DNA from: Escherichia coli 042
GTDB lineage: Bacteria > Pseudomonadota > Gammaproteobacteria > Enterobacterales > Enterobacteriaceae
Assembly: GCF_000027125.1 (NCBI RefSeq)
Contig: NC_017626.1
DNA length: 64,000 bases
Reading direction: 5' to 3' (one strand)
Position numbers: made by a program. Of the stretch, positions 36,001 through 45,000 are shown one piece after another. The first letter of the stretch is position 1, and the number at the start of each line of letters is the position of its first letter.

Positions 36001-39000
36001 ACCCGACAGGCGATGAATTACGGAAAAATCATCATTAAAAACAACGATGAAGCCCACCGCACACCAGAGATTCATTCCATGCTGGTGATCCCATTGTGGG
36101 AGAAAGGCGTTGTGACCGGAACACTGAAAATTTACTACTGCCACGCGCATCAGATCACTTCCTCATTACAGGAAATGGCGGTCGGTCTGTCGCAAATCAT
36201 CTCCACGCAACTGGAGGTTTCGCGTGCCGAGCAGTTACGTGAAATGGCAAATAAGGCAGAGCTTCGCGCTCTGCAAAGCAAAATTAATCCCCATTTTCTG
36301 TTTAACGCTCTGAACGCTATTTCATCGTCAATCCGTCTGAATCCAGATACCGCTCGCCAGCTGATCTTTAATCTGTCGCGTTATCTGCGCTATAACATTG
36401 AATTAAAAGACGATGAGCAAATCGATATCAAAAAAGAGCTGTATCAAATTAAAGACTATATTGCCATTGAGCAGGCCCGCTTTGGCGACAAGCTGACGGT
36501 TATCTATGATATTGATGAAGAGGTGAATTGCTGCATTCCCAGCCTGCTGATCCAGCCGTTGGTGGAGAATGCCATTGTCCACGGTATCCAGCCTTGCAAA
36601 GGTAAAGGCGTTGTCACCATCAGCGTTGCAGAGTGCGGCAATCGGGTACGCATTGCGGTGCGAGATACCGGGCACGGCATCGATCCAAAGGTGATTGAGC
36701 GGGTCGAAGCGAATGAAATGCCGGGCAATAAAATTGGTCTGCTGAATGTCCATCATCGCGTGAAGTTATTGTATGGCGAGGGGCTGCATATCCGCCGCCT
36801 GGAACCAGGAACGGAAATTGCGTTTTACATTCCTAACCAACGCACCCCAGTCGCCTCACAGACTACGTTATTGCTTTGAGCCGGAGTGATATTGTGAAAG
36901 TCATCATTGTTGAAGACGAATTCCTGGCACAACAGGAACTGAGCTGGCTAATTAAAGAGCACAGCCAGATGGAGATTGTCGGCACCTTTGACGACGGTCT
37001 GGACGTGTTGAAGTTTTTGCAGCATAACCGCGTCGACGCCATTTTTCTGGATATCAATATTCCGTCGCTGGATGGTGTGTTGCTGGCGCAAAACATCAGC
37101 CAGTTCGCCCATAAACCATTTATTGTGTTTATCACCGCGTGGAAAGAACATGCGGTAGAAGCGTTTGAACTGGAGGCGTTTGACTACATTCTCAAACCGT
37201 ATCAGGAGTCACGCATTACCGGGATGCTGCAAAAACTGGAAGCGGCCTGGCAACAACAGCAGACCAGCAGCACGCCTGCCGCGACGGTAACGCGTGAGAA
37301 TGACACCATTAATCTGGTGAAAGATGAGCGAATAATCGTCACGCCAATTAACGATATCTATTACGCCGAAGCGCACGAGAAAATGACCTTTGTCTATACG
37401 CGGCGTGAATCCTACGTAATGCCGATGAACATTACCGAATTTTGCAGCAAACTGCCGCCGTCGCATTTTTTCCGCTGCCATCGCTCATTTTGTGTCAATC
37501 TGAACAAAATCCGCGAGATCGAACCGTGGTTTAATAACACCTACATTCTGCGGCTGAAAGATCTGGATTTTGAAGTGCCAGTCAGCCGCAGCAAAGTTAA
37601 AGAATTCCGCCAGTTAATGCATCTTTAATCGGGAACTTTCATGAAAGCACCAGGCTTGCCCGCCGATCAACAATTTTTCGCCGATCTGTTCAGCGGCCTG
37701 GTGCTTAACCCGCAACTACTGGGGCGCGTCTGGTTTGCCAGCCAGCCTGCCTCGTTACCGGTGGGCAGTTTATGTATTGATTTTCCCCGTCTGGATATCG
37801 TGCTGCGCGGCGAATACGGCAATCTGCTGGAAGCAAAGCAGCAACGTATGGTTGAAGGAGAAATGCTGTTTATTCCAGCGCGCGCGGCTAATTTACCGAT
37901 CAACAACAAACCGGTGATGCTGTTAAGCCTGGTGTTCGCACCGACCTGGCTTGGGTTATCGTTTTACGATAGCCGTACCACGTCGTTGTTGCATCCTGCT
38001 CGCCAGATCCAACTTCCCAGCCTGCAACGCGGCGAAGGTGAAGCAATGCTTACTGCCCTCACCCATCTTAGCCGTTCGCCGCTGGAGCAGAATATCATTC
38101 AGCCACTGGTGTTAAGTTTGCTGCATCTTTGCCGCAACGTGGTGAATATGCCGCCGGGCAATTCGCAGCCGCGCGGCGATTTTCTTTATCACAGCATTTG
38201 TAACTGGGTTCAGGATAATTATGCGCAGCCGCTCACCCGTGAGAGCGTGGCGCAGTTTTTTAATATCACGCCCAATCATCTGTCAAAACTGTTTGCGCAG
38301 CATGGAACAATGCGTTTTATCGAATATGTGCGTTGGGTGCGAATGGCGAAGGCGAGGATGATTTTGCAGAAATATCATCTGTCGATTCATGAAGTGGCGC
38401 AGCGTTGCGGCTTTCCGGACAGCGACTATTTTTGTCGCGTCTTCCGGCGTCAGTTTGGCCTGACGCCGGGAGAGTACAGCGCCCGTTTTCAGGGCTAACG
38501 TCAGAAGGTTAATTCCGTTTCCAGCAGCGTCAGGATGCTTTGCGCATCTTGCGCGGCGAACAGCGACTGGCGGAAGTTTTTATTCACCAGTTTACGCGCC
38601 AGCTGCGAGAAGACTTTCACATGATTCATCCCTTCGTTAGCGCCCAGTGTCAGCATGATCACCAGTTCGACTTCGCCCATTTCTGACTGCCAGTCAACCG
38701 GTTTCACCAGCCGGGCAATGCTGATACTGGAATGACGGATCCACTGAGATTTGGTATGCGGGATCGCTACGCCAAAACCAACGCCAGTAGTAACAATCTC
38801 TTCCCGCTGCCAGACATCTTCTTCCAGCTCAAACGGATGTTCAGTACGCCCGTTAACACCAAGGTTGCCGCACAGGAACTGGATCGCCTGCTCTTTATTA
38901 CTAAAGTCCTGATCAACAAAGATATTCTCCAGCGCCAGCAGTGGGCGAACGTCTTCTTCCGGCGTAAAGGCGGTGAGTAACGCTTCAATTTCCTGCGCAC

Positions 39001-42000: not shown

Positions 42001-45000
42001 GTTCCGAGGAGGCGATCGCATCTGCCTCGCTCAACGCTTTTAGTAACGATAAATCCATTATGCCTCTCCCGTGAGCAACACTGTTTTCGGCATGGCGTAG
42101 AGCACTTCTGCGCCTTGCGGGGTGACCAGCACAACATCTTCGATGCGCACGCCCCCTTGCCCTGGCAAATAAATCCCCGGCTCCACGGTCAGTAACATGC
42201 CTGGCTGTAGCGTCGTGGTATCCCGCGGTGAAAAACGCGGCTCTTCATGGACTTCAATGCCGATAGCATGACCGGTGTTATGACCGAAATAGTCGCCATA
42301 ACCTGCTTCTGTAATGACCCGGCGCGCGGCATCGTCAACCTGCTGGCAGCGCACGCCGGGGCGAATCGCGGAGATTGCTGCGAGCTGTGCCTGCAGGACA
42401 ATCTGATAGACGTTAAACAGCGGGTGAGATTCGGCGCTCACCCCTTCGCCATTCACCAGCAAGGTGCGCGTCATATCAGAGCAGTACCCCTGATAGAGCG
42501 CACCAAAATCAAGAGTGACAAACTCGCCCGCTGCAACAATCTTGTCGCTGGCTTTACCGTGCGGCAGCGCGCCACGCCAGCCGCTGGCGACAATGGTGTC
42601 AAAAGAAGCTTTTTCTGCGCCCTGCTGGCGCATAAACCACTCCAGTTCAGCGGCTATCTCGCGCTCGCTCATCCCCGCCTGAATAAAGCGGCGAATATGC
42701 TCAGCACCGCGATCGGCAATCCCACAGGCGAGGCGGATTTTCTCCACCTCCTCTGGCGTTTTGATTTGCCGCAGCACATCCGGCGTGGCGCTAACCAGTT
42801 TCGCATTGAGTTCAGACTGCCAGCGGTGCGCGGTTTCCCAACTCACCTGCTGGCCCTCAAAACCGAGCGTTTGCAACTGCTCATCGGCAATGATTTGATT
42901 GACGATAGTGGTAAGCGTGTTCGTCGCGTCAAGCAAATGCAGCTGGTAGCCTTGCGTGCGGGCTTCTACATCCGCGTAATAGCGCGAATCCACCAGAATG
43001 TGCGCACTTTCACGGCTAATCACCACATAGCCTGATCCGGTGGAGATCCCCAGATGCGGCTGTTTGTTCTGCCGTGAGGAGAGAAGCACCGCATCCAGTT
43101 GTTGCGCCTTAAGCCAGTCGCGCAGCGAAGCGAGTAATGTCATCTGGATTTTCCTTCTTACAGGCTATCGATTAACAATTTGCCTTTACGGAACATCATC
43201 AGACGCAGGAACACCACCATCAGCGCAGTAATGACTGCCCCCAACGCGATCCCCGCCATGTAGACGCCGAGGTTAGTGACCAGCGGCCATGCCCAGATAG
43301 CGGACTCCGGGAACCATTGCACTGCGCCCAGCCAGACTGCAGCGGTTGAGCCGACAATCGCGCCGACCATATAGGACGGAATGGCGGTGATGGGGCTTTC
43401 CAGTGCAAACGGAATCGCACCTTCACTGATCCCCATAAACGCCAGGAACATGGCGGTTTTACCCTGCGGATAAAGCTGAGCACTGAACAGACGTTTGCCG
43501 GTTAAACGGCGGTCGATAATGGTCGCCAGACCCAGACCAATCGGCGGAATAACGATAGCGATAGAACGTGCGGTGACCGGTAATACGTGGTCCGTGGTAA
43601 AGCTGAAGGCAACGAAACCAGCTGCTTTGTTGATCGGGCCACCAAGGTCAATTGCTGTCGCCGCGGCGATCCCCATCGCGTACATCAGCGCGCCCTTCTC
43701 ACCTGCGGCAGTCAGCACGGTACGGATACCGCCGTTGATCCAGCCGCCAAAGGGGGTGATGACGTAGTACATCGCCAGCATGACAAAAATGGCGGAAAGA
43801 ATCGGTAGCAAAAATGTGGTTTTGAACGCTAACAGGAAATCCGGTAACTGGATTTTCTGGTTCATCCATTTCACAAGGTAACCAGCAACGATAGAAATAA
43901 TCAGGGCACCAATGAAGGTGGACGGCACCGGCGAAGAGGTCGCCCATTGCATAGTGCTGGGATCGAAGTTCAGCAGTTGCGTCGGCTGGGTAGACATCAA
44001 GCCGCCAATAAAACCAGCCGGGAACGCCAGTTTGCCGCCGATAGAGTTCGCCACAAAAGCGGCAAACATCGGAATGGCGAAACCAAACAACACGCCGCCG
44101 AAGGACTGCGACAGCCAGGCAAATTTCAGTAAGGAAAGGTCGAAACCGGAGAATTTCCCGCTATTAAGAGCATCCATGATGCCGATATCAGCAGGAATTT
44201 TAAGCCAGCTATAAGCAATCAGCTGGCTGAAAGCGAGGATCACACCGCCCATAATTAAGGTCGGCACCATGCGTGAAATCCCTGACATCACATGCTGCGG
44301 GAGTTCACCCCAGAAGCTGCTTTTAGAGGCCTGCGGATTCTTAACTGCCGCTGCCGCACCGGATGCGCCAGGCACAACGGTTGCACTGCGTTTTTTAATG
44401 GCCATAACAATTATCCCTGTCGAATATTACTGTTGTTCAGAGGCAATCATCTCTTCGATTTCTTTGATGATGCCCGCAGCGTTTTTAATTGCGTCCTGCA
44501 AAGTGATTTCATAAACGTCGCGTGATTCGAAACGTTCGTTATCTTCCGGGGTAACCGCCACGGAGTGGATGATGATGGTCGCTTCGGCGATATCCTGCGC
44601 GGTCAGGCGATTCTGGATGCCGTCCGCGCCCTGAGTTTCAATTTTCACTTCATAGCCTGCTTCCACCGCCGCTTCTTCCAGCGCCTGGGCAGCCATAAAG
44701 GTGTGAGCCAGACCCATCGGGCAGGCACATAAAGCAATCAGTTTCTTACTCATCGTTAATTCCTCGTTCAGTGATAGTTGACGAGTGAAATTATGAACGT
44801 GCAAAACAAATCGCCGTTACCAGACAAATAATGCATTTACTGGAGAATTAATCCCGCTGCACGGAAGTGTGACGCAGGTCGGCCTTGTGAGGGGACACAA
44901 AGGAAAATTGAATTAACTGTATGATTTAAAAGATTATCGGGAGAGTTACCTCCCGATATAACAGGAAGGATTTACAGAATGTGACCTAAGGTCTGGCGTA

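Follow-up and report, generated by a model that had tools for sequence, protein, structure and literature searches.

The fry locus of Escherichia coli 042, a conserved PTS-peptidase module that may take up a sugar-amino-acid or sugar-peptide conjugate

Within a 64,000-nucleotide stretch of Escherichia coli 042 DNA (contig NC_017626.1 of assembly GCF_000027125.1; hereafter the window) lies the fry operon, fryB-fryC-ypdF-ypdE-fryA, in which two aminopeptidase genes are embedded among the components of a phosphoenolpyruvate-dependent phosphotransferase system (PTS). Our favoured interpretation, to which we assign a probability of about 0.5, is that these five genes and the adjacent regulatory gene ypdC form a self-contained, horizontally mobile catabolic module, which would take up and phosphorylate a hexosyl conjugate of an amino acid or short peptide through the PTS and then trim it with the peptidases. 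The sugar of the conjugate would probably be an alpha-mannoside-like head group. We propose this because the nearest relatives of the FryC permease appear to handle alpha-mannoside-type conjugates, because the peptidases occupy the slot held in those relatives by the hydrolase that splits the conjugate, and because the block has no enzyme of sugar-phosphate catabolism. The first-pass annotation of this DNA had suggested a glycosylated peptide or an amino-sugar conjugate from the pairing of PTS and peptidase genes, and comparative genomics strengthens that idea.

The fry operon and the relatives of its permease

The fry locus is a genuine annotated locus and not a chance pattern. All five genes lie on the minus strand at window positions 38501-44753, where the RefSeq annotation of an identical strain and our own list of open reading frames (ORFs) agree. 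In order, they encode FryB (44427-44753), a fructose-family PTS enzyme IIB of 108 residues; FryC (43158-44405), an enzyme IIC membrane permease of 415 residues; YpdF (42058-43143), an M24B metallopeptidase of the Xaa-Pro type with 361 residues; YpdE (41021-42058), an M42 TET-type aminopeptidase of 345 residues; and FryA (38501-40996), a multiphosphoryl transfer protein of 831 residues that joins HPr, enzyme I (EI) and enzyme IIA (EIIA). The tight packing described in the first-pass annotation is borne out by the junctions, which measure 21 nt between fryB and fryC, 14 nt between fryC and ypdF, and 24 nt between ypdE and fryA, while the start codon of ypdE overlaps the stop codon of ypdF by 1 nt (TAATG). 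We infer that fryBC-ypdFE-fryA is co-transcribed as a single unit. By annotation and Pfam, a kinase, isomerase or aldolase acting on a sugar phosphate is absent from the block, as are a glycosidase, a deglycase and a SIS-domain protein from the six genes that include ypdC; a GH38 enzyme is absent from both the block and its flanks. An Rfam search of window positions 33000-48000 returned no match.

The locus is already known and named, and both peptidases have solved structures. A 2017 paper described FryA as lacking an assigned function and the FryABC substrate as unknown (PMC5364489), and in a table of a 2023 review the two genes fryB and fryC carry no label beyond 'fructose-like' (PMC10305011), in agreement with the earlier statement that the substrate is unknown. 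In the literature that we searched, the coverage of which was incomplete, neither fry nor the Firmicute cluster described below had been given a substrate.

By sequence, fry carries the defining features of a fructose-family PTS and of M42 and M24B peptidases. FryB matches PF02302 and TIGR00829 (92.2 bits against a cutoff of 76.85), and its translation places the phosphoryl-carrier Cys11 within CPMGLAHT, a motif of the CPxGxAHT type. FryC matches PF02378 at 53 bits and barely passes TIGR01427 (157.7 bits against 157.55). FryA contains PF00381, PF05524, PF00391, PF02896 and PF00359, scores 503 bits on TIGR01417 (cutoff 341.7) and 142 bits on TIGR00848 (cutoff 103.5), and by translation keeps HPr His15 (GLHARP), EI His298 (GRTSHT), EI Cys611 and EIIA His747 (AIPH), so that all phosphorelay residues of FryA and FryB are present. 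In the annotation of E. coli matches, the Prokaryotic Genome Annotation Pipeline gives fryA the gene symbol 'ptsP', a misleading label; ptsP in E. coli K-12 is the enzyme I of the nitrogen PTS.

The 120 best matches to FryC were all enterobacterial orthologues, and a library clustered at 50% was needed to find informative relatives. Identity between FryC and E. coli FruA, FrwC, FrvB and MngA is just 27-29% (27% for MngA), as against 51-58% with the enzymes IIC of Streptococcus suis, Tissierellales, Rahnella, Pelosinus, a metagenomic contig (L091) and a low-GC, Mycoplasmatales-like contig. This FryC family was monophyletic in 200 of 200 neighbour-joining bootstraps, and FryB is likewise 63-70% identical to the IIB proteins of the S. 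suis and Rahnella systems. The gene 3′ of the IIC gene falls into two classes, encoding either a GH38 alpha-mannosidase or an M24 peptidase. The first class comprises S. suis (PRD regulator-IIA-IIB-IIC-GH38), Tissierellales (the same order, with a type I mannose-6-phosphate isomerase in addition) and contig L091, where GH38 follows the IIC gene. The second comprises the Escherichia type, with M24 and M42 after IIC; Rahnella, with the order LacI-M20-IIB-IIC-M24, whose M24 protein is 44% identical to YpdF and whose IIB is 70% identical to FryB; Pelosinus sp. UFO1, with M20-PRD regulator-IIA-IIB-IIC-M24-PatB, the PatB scoring 351.8 bits on TIGR04350 against a cutoff of 340; and contig L082, with RidA-alanine dehydrogenase-like-RpiR-IIABC-M24-M20-PatB-like. 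The M20 proteins of these modules are dipeptidases of the PepV/Sapep type.

Further out, six FryC relatives at 34-42% identity are followed by GH38 without exception; a GH13 enzyme is encoded at several of these loci and a glycerate kinase at two, and the layout is that of E. coli mngA-mngB. GH38 follows 9 of the 12 non-fry relatives examined, and the FryC family is nested among these GH38-linked permeases. This succession suggests that the FryC lineage consists of importers of glycoside conjugates, with the enzyme that handles the conjugate encoded immediately after the permease. From one module to another, the M24 proteins share 28-44% identity, a divergence that argues for partly independent recruitment; we rejected the idea that they are all orthologous.

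Two peptidases that recur beside PTS genes

Pfam and NCBIfam agree with the first-pass annotation that an M24 and an M42 aminopeptidase stand between the PTS components. YpdF consists of PF01321 (Creatinase_N) and PF00557 (Peptidase_M24), scores 818.8 bits on NCBIfam PRK09795, and is nearly identical over residues 2-361 to PDB 5CNX, 'Aminopeptidase YpdF'. Alignment with 5CNX and 3Q6D indicates that it keeps the D, D, H, E and E metal ligands of the M24 family, in DFG..CSD, GHAIG, HE, VEPG and RIED. YpdE matches PF05343 at 286.5 bits and PRK09961 at 680 bits (cutoff 412), and the structure of its Shigella orthologue is available as PDB 1YLO. With the ligands of PhTET2 taken as H68, D182, E212, E213, D235 and H323, residues H62, D64, D166, E198, E199, D221 and H308 of YpdE align with the metal and catalytic positions of that enzyme (PDB 1Y0R), and all seven are invariant across the PTS-linked homologues examined. 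E. coli has three M42 peptidases, among which YpdE was characterised enzymatically by Zheng et al. 2005, according to PMC3511314; the same source gives YpdE as dodecameric, as unpublished data.

Each of the three M42 paralogues of E. coli is encoded within a PTS operon, namely fry, frvABXR or sgc (see also PMC3511314). FrvX and SgcX are 36% and 31% identical to YpdE, as against 41-45% for its closest homologues outside the enterobacteria, which come from Clostridioides difficile, Romboutsia, Terrisporobacter, Clostridium thermobutyricum, Lactococcus, Latilactobacillus and Massilimicrobiota. At all 13 such Firmicute loci (7 genera), the M42 gene belongs to a cluster of the form PRD regulator-M42-IIA-IIB-IIC-M24-PatB, with a PTS of the lactose/cellobiose family and a C-S lyase at the end. 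The order is constant in most loci; in Latilactobacillus fuchuensis, IIA precedes M42. The M24 protein of the cluster is 33-36% identical to YpdF. In L. sakei LT-13 (LACBS_00568-00576), the cluster has been drawn without functional interpretation, and PatB/MalY shown to be an amino-acid racemase and beta-lyase (PMC5845896). An enterobacterial metagenome-assembled genome (L029) carries a PatB-family C-S lyase directly 3′ of fryA (357 bits against a cutoff of 340), which links the enterobacterial and Firmicute designs.

Genomic-context comparison across genera, which the first-pass annotation had put forward as a check, shows PTS and peptidase genes paired repeatedly in several phyla, where both the PTS family and the second peptidase vary. 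A PTS with M24 and either M42 or M20 occurs in Enterobacteriaceae, Yersiniaceae, Negativicutes, the Mycoplasmatales-like contig and several Firmicute families, with regulators and PTS family exchanged. This recurrence is too frequent to be accidental, and is hard to reconcile with passenger genes.

Several variants accompany these loci. Some E. coli assemblies contain fused FryC-YpdF ORFs (EIIC, Creatinase_N and M24, 657-688 residues), and one contains EIIC fused to M42 (653 residues); these are proteins P0081, P0082, P0111 and P0085, the EIIC-M42 fusion included, and presumably reflect small indels or deletions across the very short junctions. In Romboutsia and Clostridium baratii, tandem M42 pairs lie just downstream of lactose/cellobiose-family PTS IIB and IIC genes (L047, 8099-9145 and 9238-10266; L048, 8915-9919 and 10001-11044). 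In the first member of each pair, Asn replaces the catalytic Glu equivalent to YpdE E198 and Lys replaces the last metal-binding His, H308, and this copy may be an inactive partner subunit. A Nanohaloarchaea metagenome-assembled genome (L053, 10001-12053) has adjacent, convergent M42 and M24 genes, and tblastn found no PTS nearby. Lactate dehydrogenase follows PatB in both Lactococcus loci (L038, 15559-16566; L039, 15590-16591), the Peptostreptococcaceae module adjoins genes for PfkB, an AgaS-like SIS protein and a class II aldolase, and that of C. thermobutyricum adjoins GatZ/KbaZ.

One could instead regard fry as an ordinary PTS for a simple hexose or polyol, with ypdF and ypdE as housekeeping passengers that degrade cytoplasmic peptides, whether from the shared transcript or from promoters of their own. 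FryB, FryC and the EIIA domain of FryA do score as generic fructose-family parts; the block contains neither glycosidase nor deglycase; and YpdE has been described as a general aminopeptidase, of a class, the M42 TET enzymes, thought to degrade peptides downstream of proteases (PMC3511314). Such a role sits poorly, however, with the recurrence of the PTS-M24-(M42 or M20) combination across families and phyla while regulators and even the PTS family change, with the distance of FryC from FruA, FrwC and FrvB and its nesting among GH38-coupled transporters, and with the lack of any kinase, isomerase or aldolase that could process a free sugar phosphate. The close packing of the genes, with ypdF and ypdE overlapping and the other junctions spanning 14-24 nt, also speaks against it, and we consider passenger peptidases unlikely.

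Alternatively, YpdF and YpdE might be deacylases that act on an N-aminoacyl amino sugar or an aminoacyl sugar ester, much as NagA and AgaA do, and release a hexosamine phosphate. No glycosidase would be required, matching the content of the E. coli block, and genes of the galactosamine and tagatose-6-phosphate pathways lie near the module in Peptostreptococcaceae and C. thermobutyricum. It also counts in favour of this idea that aminopeptidases act on aminoacyl amides whose leaving group is not a peptide, as standard p-nitroanilide assays illustrate, and that the M24 and M42 families include enzymes for non-peptide amides (the ectoine hydrolase DoeA and the M42 protein of the NAGGN system), both models being weak NCBIfam matches here. 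Yet the tagatose-pathway genes stand next to the module in two clostridial lineages only, the nearest relatives of FryC are linked to GH38 and mannose-6-phosphate isomerase and not to amino-sugar enzymes, and the frequent PatB lyase would be left without a role. We know of no natural aminoacyl-sugar substrate of this kind for E. coli, which also counts against deacylation, and we hold it to be unlikely. Import of a hexosyl conjugate remains our preferred reading of the transporter and peptidase evidence.

Inheritance, selection and regulation

A 7.5-kb query spanning the locus matched 5424 of 5426 complete E. coli genomes, with at least 80% coverage in 5415. For synteny, we scanned with YpdE across one genome per species, which gave 78 loci, and mapped the proteins of the window onto them by tblastn. 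The complete five-gene block was present in 27 of 33 enterobacterial loci; four of the remaining six were cut by contig ends, and two had a frameshifted gene, fryA being split into two frames in Citrobacter amalonaticus S646 (L011, 11064-13546) and ypdE disrupted in Escherichia sp. MOD1-EC7003 (L033, 10001-10953). Together with ypdC, the five genes travel as one block through at least 10 enterobacterial genera and occupy at least three genomic contexts. They lie between an RNase T2-like gene and an alpha/beta hydrolase gene in Pluralibacter, Enterobacter soli, Superficieibacter and their relatives, and Hafnia and an enterobacterial metagenome-assembled genome provide further settings. A block of the Enterobacteriaceae type, with 76% YpdE identity, also appears in an assembly titled Chryseobacterium sp. 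18061 (L017, CACSKA010000002.1); its gene order and match coordinates are near-identical to those of Citrobacter sp. 18056 (L019), and the assembly is probably mislabelled or contaminated.

The neighbouring regulatory genes differ in how they follow this block. On the plus strand just below the operon lie ypdA (a LytS-type kinase), ypdB (LytTR) and ypdC (37641-38498), the last encoding an AraC-family regulator (PF12833 and PF00165) and running convergently to fryA. The first-pass annotation had set the operon beside both ypdC and ypdAB. All three are indeed positional neighbours, but only ypdC is co-inherited: it accompanies the complete block in 25 of 27 enterobacterial loci, including loci without ypdAB, glk or alaC, whereas ypdA and ypdB stand beside it in 10 of 27 and are absent in 17. 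Salmonella arizonae and diarizonae, for example, keep the block and ypdC and do not have ypdAB beside them. Because ypdC, unlike ypdAB, accompanies the block across contexts, what is inherited together is a set of six genes, made up of the operon and ypdC. We rejected YpdAB as regulator of the operon, as it is not co-inherited and is a pyruvate-responsive two-component system with a different known target, yhjX (PMC5552118).

For all six genes, the ratio of non-synonymous to synonymous substitution rates (dN/dS), from comparisons with Citrobacter, Salmonella arizonae and Enterobacter soli, was 0.01-0.14, with fryC at 0.03-0.12, and is similar to the 0.03 of the neighbouring gene glk; dS was near saturation, which makes these ratios approximate. 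In mouse bladders, uropathogenic E. coli from which ypdE has been deleted is less fit (competitive index 0.30; PMC8767336). The earlier description of the operon as cryptic therefore holds in the sense of unexpressed in the laboratory and fails if it is taken to mean decaying; by its substitution pattern, the operon may be silent under laboratory conditions but is not decaying. That fry is a silent, slowly decaying remnant without present function strikes us as hardly credible. The genes have been called putative or cryptic, YpdC gave no ChIP-exo (chromatin immunoprecipitation with exonuclease treatment) peaks under laboratory conditions (PMC8464067), and occasional frameshifts such as the two above do occur. 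Against these stand near-universal presence in E. coli, low dN/dS in every gene, intact catalytic residues, a conserved promoter and the bladder defect, and the conservation data largely refute decay. Gene order, domain content, intact catalytic and phosphorelay residues, synteny and purifying selection are all directly established.

To look for regulatory sequence, we compared the 260 nt that precede fryB across 13 genera. Although the flanking DNA cannot be aligned, a block of about 85 bp stays conserved in every genus and in three genomic contexts; the predicted promoter and operator within it lie at 44790-44872 on the minus strand. The block contains an invariant TCACA (44872-44868), a half-site resembling that of CRP, with a weak other half; the centre of the predicted CRP site falls near -92.5 relative to the putative start site, which is predicted near window position 44783. 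A tandem direct repeat follows, formed by TTAATTCTCCAGTAAAT (44851-44835) and TTATTTGTCTGGTAACG (44831-44815), two 17-nt copies with a 20-bp period. The proximal copy overlaps the -35 position, where no good -35 hexamer is present, and a nearly invariant CATAAT -10 hexamer (44795-44790) lies 19 nt past it and about 35 nt before the fryB start codon. The two copies are the two best matches to the repeat motif in the window. Matches with at most three mismatches number 4 in the window against 1.7 expected, which is not significant alone; the case for the repeat is made because the two best matches are adjacent and conserved, and not by match count. A generic promoter scan found none upstream of fryB, its match counts equalling the shuffle expectation, and a general repeat search of the window did not report the 20-bp-period repeat, so that the promoter was recognised only through cross-genus alignment.

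In promoters of the araBAD type, AraC-family half-sites abut the -35 element and CRP binds further upstream. The layout upstream of fryB resembles this arrangement, and it offers sequence-level support for one probable activator-dependent promoter, with YpdC as the obvious candidate activator. Upstream of the block, glk lies across a 218-nt gap from fryB, and between its stop codon (44972) and the conserved block is a terminator-like hairpin (44935-44958, minus strand), a ten-pair stem followed by a T-rich tail, which would mark the upstream boundary of the fry transcription unit. At the other end, 2 nt separate the ypdC and fryA stop codons in E. coli (window 38498-38501), and usually no more than about 10 nt do so in other genera (L014-L030). 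This leaves no room for an intergenic terminator, so that convergent transcription or antisense interference is possible. Some Citrobacter loci have extra DNA between the two genes, of about 1.1 kb (L007 and L010, 13557-14698) or about 6.8 kb (L023, 13557-20409). Induction of the Cpx response raised ypdF 1.9-fold and fryA 1.5-fold (PMC2731931).

FryA, FryB and FryC might also serve as a sensory or regulatory phosphorelay akin to PTS-Ntr, controlling peptide catabolism in response to a ligand or to the state of phosphoenolpyruvate and pyruvate. FryA does provide a private phosphorelay parallel to the general PTS, the pyruvate sensor YpdAB and the alanine transaminase AlaC, both pyruvate-related, are neighbours in Escherichia and Citrobacter, and an in-frame deletion of fryA alters fitness in lysogeny broth (LB), a peptide medium, where it improves survival (PMC5364489). 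A purely regulatory role, however, would not explain the strong conservation of a full-length IIC permease (dN/dS 0.03-0.12), and the Rahnella, Pelosinus and Firmicute modules keep IIB, IIC and the peptidases without a private EI or HPr; ypdAB and alaC, moreover, do not travel with the block. We judge a phosphorelay of this kind to be very improbable, and return to conjugate uptake for the pathway proposed below.

Proposed pathway and comparison with known systems

In the pathway that we infer, the role of YpdC, the transport reaction, the nature of the substrate and the order of the steps are all parts of a model. An inducer would let YpdC activate a single promoter upstream of fryB, YpdC binding the tandem repeat that overlaps -35, probably with assistance from CRP. 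Phosphate would pass from phosphoenolpyruvate to EI His298, HPr His15 and EIIA His747 of FryA in turn, and from there to Cys11 of FryB. FryC would move the conjugate inward, its sugar part being phosphorylated during transport. In the cytoplasm, YpdF, an M24B peptidase of the Xaa-Pro type, and YpdE, an M42 peptidase of broad N-terminal specificity, would strip off the amino-acid or peptide part, and would thereby fill the slot held by the GH38 alpha-mannosidase in the sister operons. The sugar phosphate would then enter central metabolism through enzymes encoded elsewhere. In relatives, a PatB-type beta-lyase dependent on pyridoxal phosphate would add a further cleavage step. Pyruvate-related genes are found near several modules, among them alaC and ypdAB (window 33567-37628) in Escherichia and Citrobacter, the Lactococcus lactate dehydrogenase genes, and the genes for RidA and the alanine dehydrogenase-like protein of L082 (313-1748). 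These neighbours would fit pyruvate as the product of a beta-lyase; the links are not conserved.

Several points weigh against this pathway. Nothing encoded in the E. coli block obviously breaks a glycosidic bond between sugar and aglycone, GH38 and PatB both being absent, which leaves a gap in the proposed pathway; the gap may be closed if the link is an amide or ester, or if the unlinked MngB, MalY or MetC take part. According to the literature, both YpdE and YpdF cleave ordinary peptides in vitro, which fits a housekeeping role. The literature searched reports no substrate, transport activity or inducing condition for fry, and YpdC, as noted above, showed no ChIP-exo peaks (PMC8464067). Internal promoters may lie within the fry coding sequence. 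The low identity among the M24 proteins (28-44%), together with the alternation of M42 and M20, suggests that the modules may be convergent and need not share a substrate, and the sugar of the Firmicute module, which uses another PTS family, may differ.

More tentatively, and with appreciably less confidence than we place in the E. coli module itself, we speculate that fry-type clusters constitute a widespread, uncharacterised route for a PTS-imported hexosyl (probably alpha-mannosyl-like) amino acid, dipeptide or tripeptide, in which metallopeptidases, often with PatB, replace the glycoside hydrolase. On this view, fry would be the first PTS known to import a glyco-amino acid or glycopeptide in E. 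coli. Candidate substrates may include O-mannosyl-Ser/Thr glycopeptide fragments or a conjugate to a Cys or Ser side chain. A bacillithiol-like compound (cysteine-glucosamine-malate) was raised from gene content alone, by analogy with aglycones of the MngA type and from the presence of PatB.

If the conjugate model is correct, it would explain both the location of every E. coli M42 peptidase gene in a PTS operon and why M42 proteins were long mis-annotated as glucanases. The operon is one of several orphan PTS systems of E. coli, is core to the species and under purifying selection, and has been connected with bladder colonisation by way of ypdE and with adaptation to LB by way of fryA. Identifying its substrate would close a gap in the best-studied metabolic map of any bacterium and answer a question roughly 30 years old, which these comparisons make directly testable. 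A portable module, sister operons with an alpha-mannosidase and a cross-phylum combination of PTS, M24, M42 or M20, and PatB together turn the 'fructose-like' label into concrete experiments. The cross-phylum recurrence, the sister relation to GH38-coupled systems and the conserved YpdC-type promoter may be new; none was found described in the literature searched, the coverage of which was incomplete.

Among known routes for sugar-amino-acid conjugates, E. coli frlABCDR and Salmonella gfr, which has a mannose-family PTS, consume fructosamines by means of SIS-domain deglycases. The secondary amine of an Amadori product is not a bond that a peptidase can break. We rejected fry as an Amadori-product system, as no SIS deglycase occurs among the six genes of the block. 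In the Cys-Gly-3M3SH (3-methyl-3-sulfanylhexan-1-ol) pathway of Staphylococcus hominis, a PepV-like M20 dipeptidase and a PatB C-S lyase act in turn on a small peptide conjugate; uptake does not involve a PTS and the substrate contains no sugar. The combination of M20 and PatB is also found in the Pelosinus and L082 modules, where NCBIfam NF052477 appears among the matches. E. coli fry differs from that pathway in having M42 in place of M20 and in lacking PatB.

Closer at hand, frvABXR and sgcXBCQAER resemble fry as orphan PTS operons with an M42 paralogue, FrvX or SgcX, whose metal and catalytic residues are conserved. Unlike fry, they have no M24 partner; FrvB is a fused IIBC protein, and sgc is of the galactitol type. 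Their regulators also differ from that of fry: FrvR combines a helix-turn-helix with an EIIA2 domain, and for SgcR the annotation says no more than putative DNA-binding transcriptional regulator. The Firmicute cluster shares with fry the same pair of peptidase families beside a PTS, and has PatB as does the enterobacterial L029 locus, but it differs in its lactose/cellobiose-family PTS, its PRD-type regulator and its reliance on the general EI and HPr.

The mngR-mngA-mngB operon, which combines a PTS for 2-O-alpha-mannosyl-D-glycerate with a GH38 enzyme, and the GH38 systems of S. suis and Tissierellales share with fry an enzyme II of the fructose family, with IIC components that all fall in one broad clade. 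In the mng and GH38-linked FryC-family systems, the conjugate, once imported and phosphorylated, is split by the product of the gene immediately 3′ of the transporter, and the operons are compact and have their own regulator, as in fry. Unlike mng, fry carries M24 and M42 in place of GH38, has its own EI-HPr-EIIA protein and is accompanied by an AraC-type regulator. Although the absence of GH38 means that it is no member of that class, fry would, by analogy, work like a conjugate PTS operon of the MngA/MngB type.

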